DNA from: Escherichia phage RB14
Sequence record: NC_012638.1
Length of the DNA stretch: 64,000 nt
Strand: one strand, 5' to 3'
The first letter of the stretch is position 1. Each line of letters begins with the position of its first letter. The translations under genes and the position numbers were made by a program. Below the pieces are notes generated by a model, which saw nothing but the letters and a program-made list of their open reading frames with translations, was not told the DNA's origin and ran no database searches. Below are positions 9,782-61,225 of this stretch, one piece after another.

Positions 9782-10407
9782 TATAGTAACTCAAAGAACT
9801 CTTTGAGGCCTCTTATTACATGAGCATGGGTTTTTCCACACTCTGGACATTTAATTGGAACAGCCAAATAAACGGTAGGTTTTAAAAGCATATCTTTTAT
9901 AGCTACAATATCTGACTCTGTGATGATAGAATATAAATCTTCTAGTTCCTTTTCATTTAAGTCTTCAACTGGAATGCTTTCCCCGTTAGCATGAATCGTT
10001 TCTATACATGATACTATCATGTGGGCTATATTTTTATCATCAAAAATTTTAGGGTATCGGAATTTAATTTTAATGTCACCCAGTGTATACCAGAGGTCTT
10101 CTGGTGCATCTATTTGTGTGTGTAATAGATTTATATGGGTTGGTATTTCAGTTCCACAGGTGCACTTCCAGGAGTTTTCGTGATTAACTTCGCCGAGAGA
10201 ATGTGCCCATAAATGAATCAACAATAGTTCTGATTCTTGGCGGTTTAAATCTTTTGCATTTGTGCAGTCTTTGATTAGCTTTTTAACAATTACTTCTACA
10301 GAACCATTATTTTTGGCAGTAATAAGTTCTAGATATTCTTTAAGCGTGAATGCGCGACAATTGATTATTTTAGAACCAACTCTCACATCAAATTTGTATT
10401 CATACAT
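9781..10407 (-). CDS. 26: Baseplate hub protein gp26
   Basis: 208-aa ORF upstream of gp25, divergent from gene 51. Confidence 0.85.
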
Positions 10408-10428
10408 ATTTAGCTCCTTTATTTATCA

Positions 10429-10440
10429 TATTTATAAATA
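10429..10440. promoter_or_regulatory. Overlapping divergent late promoters for genes 26 and 51
   Basis: TATTTATAAATA holds TATAAATA on both strands (10433-10440 on +, 10429-10436 on -). Confidence 0.8.
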
Positions 10441-10457
10441 GAATAAAAGGAGCATCT

Positions 10458-11207
10458 ATGGCAAACATTATTCGTTGTAAATTACCAGATGGTGTTCATC
10501 GTTTTAAACCATTTACGGTAGAAGATTATCGAGATTTTTTGTTAGTTCGAAACGATATAGAACATCGGTCACCACAAGAACAAAAAGAAATAATTACTGA
10601 TTTAATTGATGATTATTTTGGAGACTATCCGAAGACTTGGCAACCATTTATATTTTTGCAGGTATTTGTAGGGTCGATAGGTAAAACTAAAGTACCAGTC
10701 ACATTCGTATGTCCAAAATGTAAAAAAGAAAAGACAGTTCCATTTGAAATATATCAAAAAGAATTAAAGGAACCTGTTTTTGATGTAGCTAATGTTAAAA
10801 TTAAATTAAAGTTTCCTTCTGAGTTTTATGAAAATAAAGCAAAGATGATTACTGAAAATATTCATTCCGTTCAAGTAGATGAAATATGGTATGATTGGAA
10901 GGAAATTAGTGAATCAAGCCAAATAGAACTTGTTGATGCCATCGAGATAGAAACATTAGAAAAAATTCTCGATGCAATGAATCCTATTAATTTAACTCTA
11001 CATATGTCATGCTGTAATAAGTACATTAAAAAATACACTGATATAGTAGACGTGTTTAAGCTATTAGTTAACCCAGATGAGATATTTACTTTTTATCAAA
11101 TTAATCACACACTCGTAAAAAGTAATTATAGCTTAAATTCAATAATGAAAATGATTCCTGCCGAGCGCGGATTCGTATTAAAACTGATTGAGAAGGATAA
11201 ACAATAA
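10458..11207 (+). CDS. 51: Baseplate hub assembly protein gp51
   Basis: 249-aa ORF at T4 gene 51 position. Confidence 0.85.
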
Positions 11208-16697: not shown

Positions 16698-16701
16698 CAA
16701 T

Positions 16702-16732
16702 GGGGACCTTTCGGTCCCCATATTTTTATTTA
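16702..16732 (+). terminator. Terminator after gene 54
   Basis: ggggacc-tttc-ggtcccc hairpin then T-rich tract. Confidence 0.8.
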
Positions 16733-17016
16733 CGGAATGAAATAAAAGCAGCAACTGAAGCAACTAAACTGTCTTCAATATAAACTTCAATTTTTACCGG
16801 AGCTTCTGACTCAAATTTACCTGTTACTACACCTTGAAAAATACTTTCAGTCTGTTCTGGCTTTGAAAAATTTTCAGAAGGAAAAATTCCGAACTTTTTA
16901 TCTGTTCCAAAAATTTTGATAAATTCATCGTAAACTGCTTCATTAAAAGCATTATCAGCAGGAATAACGCCTTCAACGACGAGTTCTTGACCTAAAAAGC
17001 GCAAAGAAGATTTCAT
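16726..17016 (-). CDS. Hypothetical protein (position of T4 alt.-3)
   Basis: 96-aa ORF; SD GAGG 10 nt upstream of ATG. Confidence 0.75.
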   Translation of the reverse strand: MKSSLRFLGQELVVEGVIPADNAFNEAVYDEFIKIFGTDKKFGIFPSENFSKPEQTESIFQGVVTGKFESEAPVKIEVYIEDSLVASVAAFISFRK

Positions 17017-17023
17017 TTTGTGT

Positions 17024-17077
17024 TCCTCATGTTATGTCAGTAAGACTACTATAACACAACATGAGGGACTTGTAAAC
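17024..17077 (-). promoter_or_regulatory. T4-type early promoter nested in an inverted repeat
   Basis: On - strand GTTTAC, 18 nt, TATAGT; 9-bp arms at 17025-17033 and 17058-17066, downstream arm contains the SD. Confidence 0.65.
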
Positions 17078-19134
17078 TACATTTTGAACTTTTTAGACAT
17101 TCCGTTGATGTTAACCAAAGAAGCTAAGATTTGAGAAACTTCGTTTTCCTCTTCTTTTGATTCTTCTACAAGGAATTGATTAAATCCAGCCATTGGACGA
17201 ACTTCACCAGTTTCCATTAGATGGTCGCCATCATATACTGATTCTTCTAATTGTTCAGAAGGAGGAACGATTGTACCTTCGATTAGATACTTGTTATAAG
17301 CAGTTTCTTTCATAAAGTAAGTACTTACTTTATTAATCTTCAGTAAAATTCCACGTGGTAGAATAACTTCAGCTTCTGATGGAAATCCTGATAAATGACC
17401 CGGAACGATAACTTTAACTCGTTCAGCTCCTTTAATTACCATACCCACGCTAGTTTCAGCATCTTCATTAGCATATGTAGAATGACTACCCATATGCATC
17501 AAATCTTCTGCATCAACAGAACCTTCTCCTTCGCCAGAAAATACTGCACCGGAATCATCTAGAGCCATATAGTTTTTACCATGCTCACCGAAGATATTTG
17601 GTTTAAGTGATGTCGATACGAAGTTCTTGAAATAGAACATTTTATTTTCAATGTTATGACGCAAAGTTTTAAAAGTAACTTCTTGTCCACGGTAAAGTGT
17701 AGTTCCTGGAGGAAGAACTGAACCTTTAGCAAACGCAGAATCCATAGTCTCGATGTGCTTAATAGCGCGCTCCATGTATTCTTCACGTGTAGAATCAGGT
17801 TTACCTAAAAGGAATGAGTTCATTTCAACATACGAATCTGCGCAATAATCTTCAATTACATCAGACTCAGCCTGAGTCAATCCTTTTGGAGTTACTTCAG
17901 TGCTTGCATATTCATACGCCTGAGCAGCGGATTCATCAATTAATTTATAAATTCCATTCATTACAAATTGAATAATAGCTGTCTTTTCATCTGGTGTAGC
18001 TTTAGAACCTTTAACTAAATCATTGATAATTTTCTTAATAACATCAAAACTATTAGAAATATTAATATCAGCAAGATCGCTTAAAATTTTATCAGTTTTG
18101 TAATTAAAGAAGTCTTTATTCTTTAAATATTCCTGGGAACCTTGATATGATGTATCGCTCTGCAACTTGATAGATGGATCGCGTAAACGTGCATGGGCTA
18201 ATGCAATATGATTTCGGAAACTTTCTAGTTCATAATCGTTAGATTTAAAACGAGAAGCACTTCTCATACCGCCGATAGCTCCTTTGCCGAAGTTTGAACC
18301 AATCTGAATAACGCCAGAGTTCATTGGTCCTTCTGCTTTATATACCGGAACTTTAGATTCAAACTCTTGATATTTCTTAGCAGCGAAGCTATCACCCTGA
18401 AGTGAAGCATCAACAGTAGAATATTGAGCTTGTGCTGCTAATCGACGACTAATTTTAGTTTTCTGAATAACAGCTTGATCCGTACGCTTATCATTTTCTA
18501 AAGCAATAGAAGCAGCAACTGCGACAGCTTTAGGAACAGCATTACCTGTTTTAACGTCTACATAAACATCACCAACCTTTGATTCAACTTTTGTGAATAA
18601 CTCAGTTGAAATAGGAGGTACACCTGGAATGTCTTCTAAATTGGCATTTTTACGGTAAACCATAATATATGCATATTTCTTATCATAGTCCCAGATTTCC
18701 TTTAAAAGAACATATCGACCTGCTCCTTTAGTACGTACTAAACGGTCAGCAATAACTTGCATTTGACGAGCAGCGCCATTTGTTTTACTTTTTAGTACGC
18801 GGAATAGGCATGCATCAATTTTATACTGTTTCATTGTTTGAAGAGCAGTATCAAAAACCGCATTAATGACACCAATTGGATTTCCACCCAAGTTTTTAAG
18901 CTTAACTAACGATAATTTCTCATTAACACCTATCATTACGATATGCATCATTTTGTCGCCTGGCTTAACGTTTTTATTCGTATCACCGCCAGAGGTGTAT
19001 GTACAAAATCGAAATCCAGGAAGAACGCTTTCTTCACCGGCTTGAATAGCAAAAATTTGAGGTATTTTATGCTTAGGATTTAAGTTAACAACCGGCGCCG
19101 AAGCGCCGTCAAATAATTCTGTAATAAGTTCCAT
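17077..19134 (-). CDS. Alt-family mono-ADP-ribosyltransferase paralog
   Basis: 685-aa ORF; shares N- and C-terminal blocks with the adjacent 698-aa ORF; Arg (LYRGQ), STS (FVSTSL) and ExE (SEAEVILPRG) motifs. Confidence 0.85.
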   Translation of the reverse strand: MELITELFDGASAPVVNLNPKHKIPQIFAIQAGEESVLPGFRFCTYTSGGDTNKNVKPGDKMMHIVMIGVNEKLSLVKLKNLGGNPIGVINAVFDTALQTMKQYKIDACLFRVLKSKTNGAARQMQVIADRLVRTKGAGRYVLLKEIWDYDKKYAYIMVYRKNANLEDIPGVPPISTELFTKVESKVGDVYVDVKTGNAVPKAVAVAASIALENDKRTDQAVIQKTKISRRLAAQAQYSTVDASLQGDSFAAKKYQEFESKVPVYKAEGPMNSGVIQIGSNFGKGAIGGMRSASRFKSNDYELESFRNHIALAHARLRDPSIKLQSDTSYQGSQEYLKNKDFFNYKTDKILSDLADINISNSFDVIKKIINDLVKGSKATPDEKTAIIQFVMNGIYKLIDESAAQAYEYASTEVTPKGLTQAESDVIEDYCADSYVEMNSFLLGKPDSTREEYMERAIKHIETMDSAFAKGSVLPPGTTLYRGQEVTFKTLRHNIENKMFYFKNFVSTSLKPNIFGEHGKNYMALDDSGAVFSGEGEGSVDAEDLMHMGSHSTYANEDAETSVGMVIKGAERVKVIVPGHLSGFPSEAEVILPRGILLKINKVSTYFMKETAYNKYLIEGTIVPPSEQLEESVYDGDHLMETGEVRPMAGFNQFLVEESKEEENEVSQILASLVNINGMSKKFKM

Positions 19135-19137
19135 GAT

Positions 19138-21234
19138 TTATCCTTGAACGAACTTGTAAGGCATGTTTGTAATATCTATGCAAGACGCAATAATTCCAAG
19201 AGATGATTCTACTTTCTGTTTAACGTTTGATGAAACAAATGATGCAAAGTCAACTCTGTCTTCTATTTCAGTATCACCTGTCATTGCAACTACTTCACCG
19301 GTTTCCATTAAATGGTCTCCGTCATAGATTACCGATTCGGTGAGCTCTTCCGTGGTCATAACTTCAGCTTGAATGAGTTTTGTATTATTAGATGTTGTTC
19401 CGTCATTATTAGAAGCATCAGTTATTTTATTAACTTTGACCATCAATCCACGCGGTAGAATAACTTCAGCTTCTGTTGCTATTCCGAGACTTCCTGGATA
19501 TACAACATTAACTTTATGAGCTCCATCAATTGCCCATCCTATTTGAACTTTAACGTATTCAGGATTTTCTTTATACGCTCTTATTTCGTTTGGATTAATA
19601 GTTATTCCTTCTTCATTTTTATCAACTGTTAATTCATTGCGAGCTTCTGGTTCTAAAAGACCAATACCAGCATGTGTGATTCCAAAACGTCCAAAAATGA
19701 TAGGAGTTAAAGAAGTAGATACAAAATTTCTGAAGTAGAACACTTTATTTTTAACTAACGCTTCATATATAGGAGCAGTCATACTTTGAGCACGATAAAC
19801 TGTAATGCCTTCTGGTATACGGTCACCATTTTCAAAAGCTGAATCTAAGTTATTTATAGCAGATTCAATTTCTTTTTCACTCATTACATCATATCGTTCT
19901 GGATTGTAACGACCTAAAAGAAGATTATTGATGTCAGTATATCCTGAACCGCAATATTCTCTAATGCCACGCTTTTGTGATGGAGTATATTTAGAACCAT
20001 CGCGGGCAATAGTAATATCAATCATTGGACCAGCACCAATTCCAGAAAAACTGTAAATCATTCGTTTGAGGAATTTAGTTTTTGCTGCGTTCCAGGAATT
20101 TTTAGTTATTTCTTCCCAGACTTCATCTGGTTGTCCTTTACGATTTTTATTATGATTAGCAAGCCATTTATCTTTATAATCTTCAAAGAATTGATTTACA
20201 GCTGCTGCGTATTTCTCTAAACATTTTATTGAAGTAGTTGGTTCATTTTTAATTGCATTAAAAATTACTTCTTTAATTTTTTCTGAAACTTCACCGACTT
20301 GACTCATTGGAAAGAATTTATAATCATAGTGAAGTTCATCTGCCGTTCCTTCAGCAATAATTTTTGCTGCCTTTGTTTTAGAAGCTAATGAATTAATTCC
20401 AATTTTCATTTCTTCTGCTTCGGGAATTAAAGGTGCAGTAGCTGGTTTATTAAAATTAGCTGCTGTAGATTCATACTTCTGGAATAATTCACTTTCAAAT
20501 CTAGAAGATTCCAATGACTGACTTTGTGCAATTGCTCTACGGGAAATTTTAACTTTAACGATTACGGCTTGGTCAGAACGTTTATCATTTTCTTGTGCAA
20601 TAGATGCAGCAATTGCCTCATTTTTGGTTACTTGAGCTCCAGTATCTTTATTGATATAAACATCACCGACCTTCGATTCAACTTTAGTAAAGAGCTCGGT
20701 GCTAATTTCTGGAACTCCTGGAATGTCTTCTAGTGATACATTTTTACGATGTATAAGAATATATGCATACTTTTTATCGTAATCCCAGAGTTCCTTAAGA
20801 AGGACGTATCTGCCACCTGAACGACTGCGGATGAGTCTATCAGCAATAAGTTGAATTTGTCGAGCTTGACCGGCGGTTTTAGACTTAAGAATACGAAGCA
20901 TGCAGGCATCAATTTTATATTGACGCATTGTTTGCATTGCAACAGTAAAAACTGAATTGATATAATTAATCGGGCTTGGACCAAGACCTTTTAATTTAGC
21001 AATTGAACCTTTAGCAGTTAATGTAAAAGGAACAATATGCATCATTTTATCGCCCATCTTTAAATCACGATTAGTATCACCTCCAGATGTATAGGTACAT
21101 AAACGAAAGCCTGGTTGTTCAATTGCATCATCAACATGAACTGAAAAAATTTGTGGTATTTTCTTCTTTGGATTTAAGTTTGTAATCGGAAGAGTAGTAT
21201 CTTCGTCAAATAATTCTGTAATGAGTTCCATCAT
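19138..21234 (-). CDS. alt: Alt ADP-ribosyltransferase
   Basis: 698-aa ORF (MMELITELFD...; second ATG 21231 has better SD spacing); YRAQ / FVSTSL / TEAEVILPRG motifs; adjacent to ligase. Confidence 0.85.
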   Translation of the reverse strand: MMELITELFDEDTTLPITNLNPKKKIPQIFSVHVDDAIEQPGFRLCTYTSGGDTNRDLKMGDKMMHIVPFTLTAKGSIAKLKGLGPSPINYINSVFTVAMQTMRQYKIDACMLRILKSKTAGQARQIQLIADRLIRSRSGGRYVLLKELWDYDKKYAYILIHRKNVSLEDIPGVPEISTELFTKVESKVGDVYINKDTGAQVTKNEAIAASIAQENDKRSDQAVIVKVKISRRAIAQSQSLESSRFESELFQKYESTAANFNKPATAPLIPEAEEMKIGINSLASKTKAAKIIAEGTADELHYDYKFFPMSQVGEVSEKIKEVIFNAIKNEPTTSIKCLEKYAAAVNQFFEDYKDKWLANHNKNRKGQPDEVWEEITKNSWNAAKTKFLKRMIYSFSGIGAGPMIDITIARDGSKYTPSQKRGIREYCGSGYTDINNLLLGRYNPERYDVMSEKEIESAINNLDSAFENGDRIPEGITVYRAQSMTAPIYEALVKNKVFYFRNFVSTSLTPIIFGRFGITHAGIGLLEPEARNELTVDKNEEGITINPNEIRAYKENPEYVKVQIGWAIDGAHKVNVVYPGSLGIATEAEVILPRGLMVKVNKITDASNNDGTTSNNTKLIQAEVMTTEELTESVIYDGDHLMETGEVVAMTGDTEIEDRVDFASFVSSNVKQKVESSLGIIASCIDITNMPYKFVQG

Positions 21235-21254: not shown

Positions 21255-21262
21255 TATTTATA
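21255..21262 (-). promoter_or_regulatory. Late promoter (TATAAATA on - strand) upstream of alt
   Basis: TATTTATA on + strand about 20 nt upstream of the alt ATG. Confidence 0.65.
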
Positions 21263-21283
21263 AAATTAAAGGCCCGAAGGCCT

Positions 21284-21472
21284 TTAATAATCTATTGGTA
21301 ATAGAGTACGATATATTTCAAACTTTGGACCTTTTTCATAAGCATCAAAAGTTTCTGTGAATTTATTATAAGCATATGCATCTATAAATTCAATCATGAT
21401 TTGCGATACAGAAGTAGAAACATCTCCACCTTCTTTTTGAGCCACGACAATTGTTTCTAAGTAAGCTTTCAT
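21284..21472 (-). CDS. Hypothetical 62-aa protein
   Basis: ATG overlaps ligase stop (ATGA). Confidence 0.6.
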   Translation of the reverse strand: MKAYLETIVVAQKEGGDVSTSVSQIMIEFIDAYAYNKFTETFDAYEKGPKFEIYRTLLPIDY

Positions 21473-25642: not shown

Positions 25643-25975
25643 TTATTTTACTACTTTCCAATGCTTCATATCAAGTTTACCAACTTTTTTCATCTTCTCA
25701 ATTAAGCGTTCGGCACGTTGGCGAGCTGTAACATAATACCATTCACCTAATTCATTTTGTTCAATTTTTCCAACGATTACTGTATTCAATTCATAAATCC
25801 AACCAGTAAAGAAATTATGAACTTGAATTGTAAAGGTGAAATCTGTTCCCATACCTTCTGTTGTTTCTACTTCAATAATATCACCTTCAACTGCCATTAA
25901 GAACCACATAGTTTCATCATATTTACCATTGAAGCATTTAGTTTTAACTGCAGCGTTCAGATTAATCGTTTTCAT
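25643..25975 (-). CDS. Hypothetical 110-aa protein
   Basis: ATG start. Confidence 0.65.
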   Translation of the reverse strand: MKTINLNAAVKTKCFNGKYDETMWFLMAVEGDIIEVETTEGMGTDFTFTIQVHNFFTGWIYELNTVIVGKIEQNELGEWYYVTARQRAERLIEKMKKVGKLDMKHWKVVK

Positions 25976-26048
25976 TTTATTCTCCTTTGTTTGTGTAAGA
26001 TAATACTATCACAAAGGAACCATACTGTAAACAACTTTGTGCAATCTT

Positions 26049-28967: not shown

Positions 28968-29488
28968 GTTGATCCCAGCTCCTTACTTTCAACGTTTTTA
29001 ACTAATTTGACAGAAACTAATTCAGCATCTTGAGTAATCATTACCGGGCCTTCTTCATACTCTTCAAGATATTCTAGAGCTTTCTTTTTAGCTTCTTCCT
29101 TCGTATCAGTTTGAGCATAGATATAAAACATACAACCAGTAATACCTACTACTTTCCATTTAATTTCTTTATCAGTTTTAATTTCAAATTTACTGACAGA
29201 ATCATCTTTTTGAACTTCTTCGAAAAAATAATATTCTGACATATAAGTAATTGAAAATAACGGGCTATCTTTATAGCATTCGCCCATTACATCAACAGCT
29301 TTATACCAGCAGTCATCAATTTCACGTTTAATGCTAATAACATTCTTCGCGGGATCAATTTTTACTTTAAATGAATTTTCATCAATAAACTGGGCAATTC
29401 GTTTATTAGCCCCACAAGTTTCATTAAAAATATCTTTATATCCAGCTTTAAAGCGATAAACCTTATCTTCTTCAAACCATTCGCTCAT
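28961..29488 (-). CDS. Hypothetical protein (cd.3 position)
   Basis: ORF to 29503; SD-preceded ATG at 29488 (GAGGAAA), 175 aa. Confidence 0.65.
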   Translation of the reverse strand: MSEWFEEDKVYRFKAGYKDIFNETCGANKRIAQFIDENSFKVKIDPAKNVISIKREIDDCWYKAVDVMGECYKDSPLFSITYMSEYYFFEEVQKDDSVSKFEIKTDKEIKWKVVGITGCMFYIYAQTDTKEEAKKKALEYLEEYEEGPVMITQDAELVSVKLVKNVESKELGSTC

Positions 29489-31949: not shown

Positions 31950-32299
31950 TTAGAAAGATCCTGGATGTCTTCTGCGAACTTGCTAAAGGAATTGTTGATT
32001 TGTTTTTCAACCAATCCTGGCTTACTAGCCACCACATCCGCCTTCTTCGCATCTTTACGCAGTTTTTCATTTTCACGCTCAATTGCAGCAATTGATTCAC
32101 GATTTTTATTATTCATTGCATCAATATAATTATATTGATTTTTTAAATCATTTAATGCTAAAGCATTTTCATTAGCAGTTTTTGTAATTTCTACGACAGA
32201 CGTTTCTAATCTTTCAATTTTGTGTTTTAAAACTAAAGAAGTTCCGCCCAATGTAATTACAATTAATAGTAAACCTGCTGTAGTATTACTTAATTGCAT
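31946..32299 (-). CDS. Inner-membrane spanin (Rz equivalent)
   Basis: 117-aa ORF; N-terminal transmembrane helix then coiled-coil-like region; directly upstream of the lipoprotein. Confidence 0.75.
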   Translation of the reverse strand: MQLSNTTAGLLLIVITLGGTSLVLKHKIERLETSVVEITKTANENALALNDLKNQYNYIDAMNNKNRESIAAIERENEKLRKDAKKADVVASKPGLVEKQINNSFSKFAEDIQDLSK

Positions 32300-32796
32300 A
32301 AAGTTTTAATAACCTCTATAATATCGTCTTGAGAAAGACCGTTAATTAAAATATGATGTTCAGCTGGAGATTTAGAAATTTTAAAGCATGCCGCAACATC
32401 TTCTGCCATATCTGATGCACTACGATTTGGATTACTAATTCCAAGACGATGCTTTCCAGTCAAAGGATTAACGATGATATAGCATTTGCAGCTATTGATA
32501 TGAACATTGGGTTGAGTCTGATTAATGAACACTTCACAATCATACTTAGCGAGTTGATTTTCTAAAAAGACTTTCATCTCTTCAACCGCATCAGGAAGCA
32601 TATCACGGGCTTGCTCAAGACGACGATTTCGATATTCTTTAATGGTCGTTTTCCGCTTGACTTGCTTAGCTAAATCTTTCTTAAGATCGGTGATATATCC
32701 AACTCGACGATTTCCTTTGAATACAGAAATCCCATCTGTAGTATCACCGTATGCTTCAACGACCATTTCAGTAGTAATAAGTTGTAAATCCATCAT
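32290..32796 (-). CDS. alc: Alc (inhibitor of host transcription on cytosine DNA)
   Basis: 168-aa ORF (MMDLQLIT...) recognised as T4 Alc. Confidence 0.88.
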   Translation of the reverse strand: MMDLQLITTEMVVEAYGDTTDGISVFKGNRRVGYITDLKKDLAKQVKRKTTIKEYRNRRLEQARDMLPDAVEEMKVFLENQLAKYDCEVFINQTQPNVHINSCKCYIIVNPLTGKHRLGISNPNRSASDMAEDVAACFKISKSPAEHHILINGLSQDDIIEVIKTLCN

Positions 32797-32800
32797 AAAG

Positions 32801-32854
32801 TCCTCATGTTATGTCAGTAAGACTACTGTAACACAACACGAGGGACTTGTAAAC
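32801..32854 (-). promoter_or_regulatory. T4-type early promoter nested in an inverted repeat (upstream of alc)
   Basis: Near-identical to 17024-17077; arms at 32802-32810 and 32835-32843 (one G-U wobble). Confidence 0.65.
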
Positions 32855-32857
32855 AGC

Positions 32858-34445
<1,588 letters not shown>

Positions 34446-34452
34446 AATAAAA

Positions 34453-34468
34453 TGGGCCTTGCGGCCCA
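34453..34468 (-). terminator. Hairpin plus U-tract between nrdB and denA
   Basis: tgggcc-ttgc-ggccca; on - strand followed by UUUUAUU and then the denA ATG. Confidence 0.55.
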
Positions 34469-34472
34469 CTCC

Positions 34473-35651
34473 TTAAAAGTATTTTTTAAAACTCATCATA
34501 ACTTTATCATCAACATCATTATCAATCTGTGCAACAAGATAAGATGACAGTTCTACTTCTTGTGGCGCGGATTGAACATTATCAGAATTAAGATATTCAC
34601 GAATCCAAGGATATGGATGTTTAACCGGAGCATCGGTAATTGGGCATGGAAGACCGCACTGTTTCATACGAGATACAGTTAAGTAATCAATAAAGCTCCA
34701 CATGCTATTTGTATTTAATCCAGGAACATCGCCATCTTTAAATAAATGAACTGCCCAATCTTTTTCTTGGCGGTTAACTTCCATGAAAATATCAACTGCT
34801 TCTTGTTCACACTCTTGAGCAATTTTAACCCATTGATCGCCATCAGTACCAGATTGAAGTTGACGAATAATATATTGGGTGCCTTTAAGGTGAAGCTGTT
34901 CATCGCGTGCAATGAACTTCATAATCTTGGCATTACCTTCCATGATTTCCATGTTTTTATGGAAGTTAAAGGTACATGCGAAAGATACATAAAAACGAAT
35001 AGCTTCCAATGCGTTGATTACATGCAAACAGAGGTAAAGAGATTTCATTAGCTCACGCTTCCAATATGTCTCATGCTCAATAGCATCTTCAATAACGTCT
35101 TCGTCTGCATTAATTTCTTTTTGGTATTCGATATCAGCTTTAGCGTTTTCCCAATAACGAGTTTTAATTAGAACATCATCATAATAACGTCCAATGGATT
35201 CAGCACGTTTCATAATAGCTTCATCTAATACAATCTCATCAAATACCTTCGATGGATCAGTATAAAGATTTCGCATGATATGAGTATATGAACGGCTGTG
35301 AATAGTTTCACTAAAAGTCCACGTAGCAACCCATGTATCAAGGCTTGGGTCTGAAATTAATGACATAAGTACAGCAGACGGCGCACGACCCTGAATGCTA
35401 TCCAAAAGTGATTGATACTTCAGATTATTAGTAAAAATATTTTGCTGATACTGAGGAAGCTTATTAAACTGTGCAGCATCCATCATCAAGTTTACTTCTT
35501 CAGGACGCCAGAAAAATGATAAAGACTTCTCAGTAAGTTCTTCAAATACTCGATGCCGTTGAATATCATAACGCGCAATACCAAGACCTGAACCAAAAAA
35601 CATAGGTTCTTTTAAAACATCAACTGGATTTGTATTAAAAACTGTGCTCAT
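34473..35651 (-). CDS. nrdB: Ribonucleotide reductase small subunit NrdB (intron-less)
   Basis: Uninterrupted 392-aa ORF. Confidence 0.92.
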   Translation of the reverse strand: MSTVFNTNPVDVLKEPMFFGSGLGIARYDIQRHRVFEELTEKSLSFFWRPEEVNLMMDAAQFNKLPQYQQNIFTNNLKYQSLLDSIQGRAPSAVLMSLISDPSLDTWVATWTFSETIHSRSYTHIMRNLYTDPSKVFDEIVLDEAIMKRAESIGRYYDDVLIKTRYWENAKADIEYQKEINADEDVIEDAIEHETYWKRELMKSLYLCLHVINALEAIRFYVSFACTFNFHKNMEIMEGNAKIMKFIARDEQLHLKGTQYIIRQLQSGTDGDQWVKIAQECEQEAVDIFMEVNRQEKDWAVHLFKDGDVPGLNTNSMWSFIDYLTVSRMKQCGLPCPITDAPVKHPYPWIREYLNSDNVQSAPQEVELSSYLVAQIDNDVDDKVMMSFKKYF

Positions 35652-61053: not shown

Positions 61054-61167
61054 TCACATAAATCCAAAGTAAGCGTTTAATACATCAATCATTAAAACGA
61101 TTGGGAATATACTCAAAACTATTAGTATTATAACTACATTCCATATAGCTTTAACAATCTTTTTCAT
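61054..61167 (-). CDS. Small membrane peptide (37 aa)
   Basis: MKKIVKAIWNVVIILIVLSIF...; ATG 61167 lies 9 nt after GGAGG and downstream of the early promoter; the track extension to 61263 spans the promoter. Confidence 0.55.
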   Translation of the reverse strand: MKKIVKAIWNVVIILIVLSIFPIVLMIDVLNAYFGFM

Positions 61168-61195
61168 TTTGTGTTCCTCCGTAGTTGATAGGGTA

Positions 61196-61225
61196 ATAGT
61201 ACCACGGAGGAACAGTCTTGTAAAC
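61196..61225 (-). promoter_or_regulatory. T4-type early promoter nested in an inverted repeat
   Basis: On - strand GTTTACA, 18 nt, TACTAT; arms 61174-61182 and 61204-61212, downstream arm contains GGAGG. Confidence 0.65.

Follow-up and report, generated by a model that had tools for sequence, protein, structure and literature searches.

An early promoter of phage RB14 overlaps a hairpin predicted to mask the Shine-Dalgarno sequence of alt.-3 in read-through RNA

When an early promoter occupies the gap between two genes of the same strand, will the downstream gene be translated equally from RNA started at this promoter and from RNA arriving from upstream? The question is raised by a 60-nt intergenic gap on the − strand of Escherichia phage RB14 (NC_012638.1), which has a paralog of alt upstream and alt.-3 downstream and contains both a promoter and a hairpin. 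The window, that is, the whole analysed stretch of 64,000 nt, was assigned to a T4-like phage of the genus Tequatrovirus (RB51-like); over the 901 bases around the alt.-3 site, it shares 98.3% identity with RB51, RB68 and numerous further phages. An earlier note, made from the sequence alone, had suggested that the hairpin could hide the Shine-Dalgarno (SD) sequence of alt.-3 in read-through RNA, and that promoter-started RNA, lacking the upstream arm, leaves it free. The results presented below make it rather probable that the site is a promoter-coupled translational gate of this kind. All coordinates of the promoter, the hairpin and the SD are given on the − strand.

The GTTTAC −35 hexamer, which is of the T4 early-promoter type, and the TATAGT −10 box named in the earlier note are found at 17077–17072 and 17053–17048, respectively, the latter as an extended −10 with TGt in front of it (17056–17048, with TGn at 17056–17054). 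Two 9-bp inverted-repeat arms had been described around them. The arms CCTCATGTT (17066–17058) and AACATGAGG (17033–17025) are present, but they are parts of a longer helix formed by 17066–17052 and 17039–17025, with 15 contiguous pairs, two of them G-U, and an additional 4-bp apical stem. The 5’ (anti-SD) arm, CCTCATGTTGTGTTA (17066–17052), falls within the promoter spacer and reaches two bases into the −10 box. The 3’ arm, TGACATAACATGAGG (17039–17025), identified by folding and inverted-repeat analysis, does include the SD GAGG (17028–17025) of alt.-3, whose ATG is at 17016. Only one of the two promoter elements said to lie between the arms is enclosed by them: the −10 box, accompanied by nothing but the predicted start at approximately 17041. 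The −35 hexamer is situated outside, 5 nt upstream of the 5’ arm. Since the 5’ arm lies in the −35/−10 spacer, upstream of the predicted start, RNA initiated at this promoter cannot carry it, as had been claimed.

The two kinds of RNA were compared by folding, the opening energy being defined as the cost of making the start region from −18 to +12 single-stranded; all the values were predicted for RNA free of proteins. For the 121-nt read-through RNA the folding energy is −33.2 kcal/mol (z = −4.3), and none of 200 shuffled sequences is as stable. RNA from the predicted start at 17041 is unstructured (−3.0 kcal/mol, z = +1.0). Opening of the alt.-3 start region costs 21.9 kcal/mol in the read-through RNA vs 5.6 kcal/mol in the promoter-started RNA, which agrees with the idea that the former can hide the SD and the latter exposes it. 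For the SD only, the values are 11.9 and 1.4 kcal/mol, that is, approximately 10 kcal/mol more in the read-through RNA. By its opening energy, alt.-3 ranks first among 94 gene starts in the window (median 7.9, standard deviation 3.9). Two further pairings are available to the read-through RNA only: an alternative register, where the 5’ arm pairs with the AUG region (17064–17053 with 17024–17013, 11 of 12 positions paired), and an outer helix between 17096–17083 and codons 4–8 of alt.-3 (17005–16992). The sense and antisense strands of the main helix show little asymmetry (−23.4 vs −21.6 kcal/mol). No Rfam family matched anywhere in the window.

The promoter shows all parts of the T4 early promoter as given by Hinton (PMC2988021), namely an A-rich stretch on the upstream side, GTTTAC, TGn and the −10 box. 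Counted from GTTTAC, the spacer is 18 nt long; the promoter scan reported the variant TTTACA with a 17-nt spacer, 10 of 12 matches and the TG present. The A-rich stretch (17097–17078) lies within the last codons of the Alt paralog, at the position of the UP elements known from T4 early promoters (PMC2988021), and also provides the 5’ strand of the outer helix. The G of GTTTAC is the final base of the TAG stop codon of this gene (17079–17077). Neither the late core TATAAATA nor a MotA box was found at this promoter by inspection of the sequence or by the promoter scan. Transcription is predicted to start at the A at 17041 (approximately 123057 in T4), 7 nt past the −10 box from whose position it was derived, and this start would give a 25-nt leader. 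The same promoter stands at the Alt stop codon in six other genera (Dhakavirus, Mosigvirus, Marfavirus, Kanagawavirus, Karamvirus and Gelderlandvirus); in all six, GTTTACA abuts the stop, the extended −10 follows at 18 nt, an ATGAGGA-like SD is present, and the gap is about 60 nt long. The GenBank record of phage ASO78A annotates the site, by motif, as a T4-early-like promoter. The GenBank T4 records examined carry no annotated promoter features, and the main text of the T4 differential RNA sequencing paper does not mention alc, ndd or 30.8.

The upstream gene (17077–19134, − strand) encodes a full-length Alt paralog, a 685-aa ADP-ribosyltransferase (Pfam ADPrib_exo_Tox, E = 9e-20). It is called ‘alt.-2’ in the RB51 naming, and only the alt.-1/alt.-2 remnants of it are kept in T4; the deletion in T4 leaves its last ~25 nt, and with them the A-rich segment belonging to the alt.-3 promoter. 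Wolfram-Schauerte et al. followed T4 infection over time (PMC9697503, supplements); in their data alt.-3 is early at the levels of both RNA and protein, RNA of the neighbouring upstream genes alt, alt.-1 and alt.-2 is middle, and the Alt protein is late. An active early promoter at alt.-3 would be expected to cause such a shift of the RNA class, from middle to early within 60 nt.

Where would RNA crossing the hairpin come from? Upstream of alt on the − strand, a terminator consisting of the GC hairpin AAAGGCCTTCGGGCCTTT and a T-run (21287–21264) is followed in turn by a late-promoter core TATAAATA (21262–21255), the alt SD and the alt ATG at 21231. A gap of 4 nt separates alt from its paralog, and the terminator scan found no U-tract terminator among alt, the Alt paralog and alt.-3. 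Given the late promoter before alt and the lack of such terminators, read-through RNA over alt.-3 is expected, and from this gene order it should be mainly late RNA supplying the packaged Alt proteins. In T4, alt.-1/alt.-2 RNA occurs at middle times. The short alt.-3 transcript and the read-through one would both end at a bidirectional intrinsic terminator at the alt.-3/gene 54 boundary (16700–16721), detected by the terminator scan and also annotated in phages Ac3 and ASO78A. As a separate observation, the terminator and the late promoter adjoin each other at 21255–21287. Transcription coming from the gene 30 cluster at early and middle times would be stopped at this place, and only a few bases further on late transcription would begin anew.

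The cassette is not confined to alt.-3. BLAST within the window revealed a second copy running from the −35 hexamer to the SD (32801–32854, − strand; 52 of 54 positions identical). It is situated between rnlA (gene 63) and the host shut-off gene alc (32290–32796, − strand; 168 aa, Pfam ALC), which it serves. There the helix extends outward via alc-specific sequence (AAGTCC with GGACTT), and the start region requires 21.7 kcal/mol to open in read-through RNA vs 4.4 kcal/mol in promoter-started RNA, the second highest value among the 94 gene starts. In the T4 alc copy the sense strand is considerably more stable than the antisense strand (−24.4 vs −15.4 kcal/mol). Further upstream, before rnlA (true ATG at approximately 33982), the segment ATGATGCTTCCACATGGAGTGTGGTACTAT (34005–34040, − strand) resembles a MotA-box middle promoter with an extended −10, which would send middle-time read-through RNA into alc; an rnlA middle promoter is absent from the table of T4 middle promoters consulted.

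The design at alc is widespread, and the comparison of alc leaders provides the strongest support for SD masking. From annotated phages, IMG/VR and metagenomes, 55 distinct alc leaders were collected; 43 distinct cores with a parsable promoter, together with the alt.-3 core of the window, were grouped into 19 lineages. In most alc lineages the run immediately after GTTTACA is complementary to the SD region of the same lineage, even though the sequences differ between lineages. As the MAFFT alignment of leaders set the helices of different lineages in different registers, and a synthetic alignment anchored on the arms was set aside as circular, we used an alignment-free own-versus-cross test, in which the spacer of each lineage is paired with the start region of every lineage. 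The own start region was the best partner of the spacer in 11 of the 19 lineages. The mean energy of own duplexes was −13.6 kcal/mol vs −7.3 kcal/mol for cross pairs, and the observed mean was not reached in any of 10,000 permutations. The SD core is fully paired with the spacer in ten lineage representatives out of 19, and in four more the hairpin around the −10 box ends 1–6 nt before the SD. Wherever masking occurs, the 3’ arm ends 3–8 nt upstream of the AUG.

The extent of divergence is seen from the arms themselves, given here as the 5’ (spacer) arm followed by the 3’ (SD region) arm: CCTCGTGTTGTG and CATAACATGAGG in Tequatrovirus; TCTCCGTTTTTG and CAAAAACGGAGA in Karamvirus CkP1, with TCTCCATTTGGTT and AACCAAATGGAGA in Karamvirus EnC15; TCCTCATCAG and CTGATGAGGA in Jiaodavirus; TCTCCTCAT and ATGAGGAGA in Dhakavirus. 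Among leaders known by our own numbers, L042, L075 and L077 have (T)CCCCATTTTGTT and AACAAAATGGGG, L043, L079 and L080 have CCTCGTTTGTT and AACAAACGAGG, and L066 has CCTCTCATTTTT and AAAAATGAGAGG. The arms thus diverge but stay complementary and keep covering the SD, that is, they covary as expected for an RNA helix; neither a terminator nor a protein operator would require this.

This bears on two other explanations of the hairpin. According to one of them, which we consider quite unlikely, it is a terminator, attenuator or processing signal that stops or trims alt transcripts or protects their 3’ ends, and its overlap with the SD is incidental. The best precedent comes from the promoter-early stem-loop (PeSL) cassettes (Arbiol et al. 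2010, PMC2839356; Comeau et al. 2014, PMC4122927), whose stem-loops are likewise placed between −35 and −10 or over −10, and one of which, from RB49, reduced downstream lacZ approximately as a strong terminator does (PMC2839356). In addition, the ASO78A record labels the alt.-3 hairpin a rho-independent terminator, a WebGeSTer prediction. On the other hand, the bases following the alt.-3 stem are A-rich and form no U-tract, no U-tract follows the stem in any alc lineage, where the tails are A-rich as well, and the real terminators nearby are GC stems with T-runs. The position of the 3’ arm relative to the SD and the AUG in the masking lineages is a constraint that a terminator does not require. 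An intrinsic terminator proper was considered for the alt.-3 hairpin and rejected, given the lack of a U-tract and the silence of the consensus terminator scan.

The other explanation places the function in DNA: the inverted repeat around the −10 box would be a protein-binding site, a cruciform or a recombination hot-spot. The arms are perfect Watson-Crick repeats without strand bias in several genera, and PeSL-type cassettes mediate recombination (PMC2839356, PMC4122927). Nevertheless, the complete turnover of the arms between lineages with complementarity and SD coverage retained fits an RNA helix and not an operator, and in Tequatrovirus the G-U pairs favour the sense RNA, markedly at alc and marginally at alt.-3. 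A role at the DNA level therefore seems to us highly improbable.

How did the hairpin come to be at alt.-3? The Tequatrovirus cassette there looks as if the alc cassette had been copied, in the ancestor of the genus, into the place of the ancestral alt.-3 promoter. The two have the GTTTACA and TGAGGA ends in common. The direction from alc to alt.-3 is suggested by the design being widespread across genera at alc and by the outer pairing being alc-specific.

Several points weigh against the gate. The homology of the alt.-3 and alc copies means that they are not independent evidence. The masking arm is missing at alt.-3 in five of the six other genera having the promoter, where opening costs 4.5–8.5 kcal/mol, approximately the background level; hence masking is not generally needed for alt.-3. 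At alc, five of the 19 representatives, Mosigvirus included, have no hairpin and lack masking, and outside Tequatrovirus the sense strand is not systematically more stable than the antisense one (16 of 28). Finally, the hairpin is kept at all sequence-checked Tequatrovirus alt.-3 loci, with energies from −19.6 to −25.7 kcal/mol, but these 15 loci represent only six closely related haplotypes, so the pair-preserving substitutions among them (A to G, C to T and G to A) carry little statistical weight. Of the further helix changes, one C to T lengthens the helix, and one C to A drops the outermost pair only. Single-protein scans of IMG/VR for alt.-3 gave six loci.

One may therefore ask whether the alt.-3 hairpin is a mere hitch-hiker, functional at alc and carried along to alt.-3 by a cassette swap with no selected role in the new place. 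Apart from the five genera that do without the arm, this would agree with the homologous block running exactly from the −35 hexamer to the SD, with the AAGTCC at its 5’ end, common to both copies, pairing with the alc-specific GGACTT and so pointing to an alc origin, and with the known recombination of PeSL cassettes (PMC2839356). Still, we regard it as unlikely. All 15 checked Tequatrovirus loci retain the hairpin and their helix substitutions mostly keep the pairs; sequence specific to alt.-3 and downstream of the block provides the 5’ arm with its second, AUG-masking partner; and in Kosakonia phage 305 an unrelated spacer arm pairs with the AUG and the first codons of alt.-3 (opening 20.3 vs 5.6 kcal/mol). 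The masking arm at alt.-3 is thus found in Tequatrovirus only, plus the independent case of the Kosakonia phage, as far as the compared leaders go. Moreover, read-through RNA would be affected physically in the same way, however the cassette arrived. Evidence for SD masking that does not depend on the two homologous copies is provided by alc in other genera, by alt.-3 of Kosakonia phage 305 and by two more genes of the window, ndd.4 and 30.8.

The latter were found by examining all early promoters of this type. There are 12 matches to GTTTAC-N16-18-TAnnnT in the window, all on the early-gene strand, and seven of them have promoter-overlapping hairpins. The spacer is complementary to the SD region at alt.-3, alc, ndd.4 and 30.8, that is, at four of the 11 promoters with an identifiable downstream start. 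At these four the spacer-leader duplex has −11 kcal/mol or better, compared to 3.4% of shuffled spacers, and duplexes of −20 kcal/mol or better did not occur in 3300 shuffled spacers. At ndd.4 (61165–61225, − strand; promoter at 61225, ATG at 61167), TGTTCCTCCGTG pairs with TACGGAGGAACA over 14 bp, SD included, and opening costs 17.4 vs 1.2 kcal/mol; the SD-to-ATG segment GAGGAACACAAAATGAAA is identical at ndd.4 and alt.-3. The case of 30.8 (25973–26032, − strand; promoter at 26032, ATG at 25975) is weaker, with TTCCTTTGT pairing with ACAAAGGAG over 9 bp, again with the SD, and 11.5 vs 1.0 kcal/mol. Since masking at 30.8 is weak or variable in four other genera, no conservation is claimed there. 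In T4 all four masked genes belong to the early RNA class.

At three more promoters on the − strand, those of frd.1 (40901), of an open reading frame (ORF) with the ATG at 29488 (29548) and of 30.7 (25640), the −10 hairpins fall short of the SD, and the spacer pairs with the first transcribed bases. These hairpins could be of the terminator-like PeSL type. The ORF at approximately 29488, starting with MSEWFEEDKVYRF, had no match in the RB51 stretch compared, and the interval from alt.-3 to alc is about 500 bp longer than in RB51, which points to an insertion beside an early-promoter cassette.

If the long RNA is translated up to the stop codon of the Alt paralog, ribosomes terminating there might melt the hairpin, and late synthesis of Alt.-3 would then need upstream translation. 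Coupling through hairpin unwinding is known in phage and operon mRNAs, and the stop codon (17079–17077) precedes the main helix by just 10 nt. A ribosome with a stop codon in the A site covers approximately 9–10 nt beyond it and unwinds less, so the alt.-3 helix begins at or past the expected ribosome edge. At alc the helix is farther off: the stop is 4–7 nt before the −35 hexamer, and the arm begins at position 8. The helix seems to be placed just beyond the reach of the ribosome, and we find translational coupling very unlikely.

The promoter-coupled gate would then operate as follows. A strong T4-type early σ70 promoter at the stop codon of the Alt paralog would start a short alt.-3 mRNA at approximately 17041 with the SD single-stranded. 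The 15 nt just past the −35 hexamer, complementary to the SD region, would be carried only by RNA derived from upstream, either late RNA from the TATAAATA promoter before alt or RNA leaking through the terminator; such RNA, having both arms, is predicted to fold into the 15-bp helix, with the optional AUG-masking register and the outer helix, and to bury the SD. The late RNA of the alt operon would then yield no Alt.-3, and the early promoter of the gene itself would be the sole source of the protein. This would be the logic of e, soc and I-TevI with the timing inverted, built on a repeated PeSL-type cassette of promoter, stem-loop and SD, of which the alc copy is apparently the original.

The product of alt.-3 (16726–17016, − strand) is 96 aa long and belongs to Pfam DUF5498. 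The gene is non-essential, and mutants with C-terminal extensions let T4 escape the CmdTAC defence (PMC11618068).

Structured gene starts of other kinds were also noted in the window. At 10400–10460, two divergent genes (208 aa on the − strand, start at 10407; 249 aa on the + strand, start at 10458, gene 51 by its offset from the RB51 annotation) have back-to-back TATAAATA late promoters. The SD of each gene (AAAGGAGC) is the reverse complement of that of the other, and any RNA that spans the region therefore contains both an anti-SD and an SD; by start masking these genes rank 7 and 8. The 136-aa gene upstream of rnlA (denA by its position and size) has a GC hairpin, GGGCCGCAAGGCCC, between the SD AAGGAG and the ATG (34445–34480, − strand). 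It ranks third by start structure and resembles the ‘split’ ribosome-binding sites of T4 genes 38 and 25.

To which of the known systems is the alt.-3 element closest? In T4 genes e, soc, 49 and I-TevI and in Aeh1 mobE, hairpins with a nested promoter sequester the ribosome-binding site (Uzan and Miller 2010, PMC3014915). In these genes, as proposed for alt.-3, the hairpin takes in the SD or the AUG, RNA from the internal promoter lacks the 5’ strand and is translatable, and the longer RNA is silent. A stable helix over the SD in the long transcript is found at alt.-3 as well, with 15 bp and GAGG covered. The nested promoter in the known cases, mobE among them, is late, or middle and late, and it is the early read-through RNA that is silenced. 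At alt.-3, in contrast, it is not a late (gp55) or middle (MotA) promoter but an early σ70 promoter of the type GTTTAC-N18-TGnTATAGT, the 5’ strand is its −35/−10 spacer, and the RNA predicted to be silenced is the later read-through one. The earlier note, which saw here the e/soc logic applied to an early promoter, was apt as to the logic; the timing is predicted to be the opposite, with late RNA silenced and early RNA translated. Given its early nested promoter, alt.-3 is a variant that would work like the e/soc family and not a strict member of it. Neither alc nor alt.-3 is listed in the review of Uzan and Miller (PMC3014915), which gives no case with an early promoter, and our literature searches brought up no account of an SD-masking hairpin with an early promoter at either gene.

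The endoribonuclease RegB, which inactivates T4 early mRNAs, is another means of restricting early-gene translation to the first minutes, in its case by destroying access to the SD (PMC3014915). It is a trans-acting nuclease that cuts GGAG, whereas the SDs of alt.-3 and alc are GAGG without GGAG, and the block proposed here is a cis-acting RNA structure.

In its composition the element resembles the PeSL cassettes. These are intergenic, begin at the upstream stop codon, and consist of an A/T-rich stretch and a σ70-type early promoter followed by the SD and the ATG, all of which is seen at alt.-3. The placement of the stem-loop agrees too, the alt.-3 5’ arm being in the spacer and the −10 box in the loop. 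PeSLs are repeated within a genome and swapped between loci, and alt.-3 has its 52/54 copy at alc. They have been reported in the T4/PST pair, including ndd.4/ndd.5 (PMC2839356, PMC4122927), and alt.-3 has SD-to-ATG segments in common with ndd.4 and with Mosigvirus ndd.1. In the Mosigvirus mar005P1 ndd.1 leader (L017, 1483–1543), CATGAGGAACACAAAATG and the −10 region are common with the Tequatrovirus alt.-3 leader, and the hairpin is a different one (GTAGGA with TCCTAC); common segments together with a different hairpin indicate mosaic exchange of leaders between loci and genera. The alt.-3 stem differs from the published PeSLs in having no U-tract and in that its 3’ strand is the SD. In the PeSL papers the stem-loops are interpreted as terminators or attenuators and also as sites of recombination, with no mention of translation or SD sequestration (PMC2839356).

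We tentatively suggest that many promoter-overlapping PeSL stem-loops may be translational insulators rather than terminators, with the anti-SD strand within the promoter spacer. If so, PeSL stem-loops would have to be reread, and wherever such a cassette lands, the gene would be translatable only from RNA of its own promoter: a portable T-even module fixing the timing and independence of early-gene expression. Covariation across many genera makes this idea directly testable at alc, and mutations of the spacer arm can leave the −35 box, the −10 box and the coding sequence intact. For phage engineering, a 54-bp module of this kind would also offer a small part that confines expression to its own promoter. 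The end of early T4 expression has been described as incompletely understood (PMC2988021, PMC3014915). Insulation would help to explain why synthesis of Alc, Alt.-3, Ndd.4 and 30.8 ends despite later transcripts crossing their genes. T4 is the textbook case of late genes silenced by hairpins on early read-through RNA, and the inverted version would add a cis-acting route to ending early protein synthesis. From the likenesses seen in its sequence, we file the alt.-3 element as a PeSL-type cassette that would act like the e/soc hairpins with inverted timing, and not as a new kind of element.

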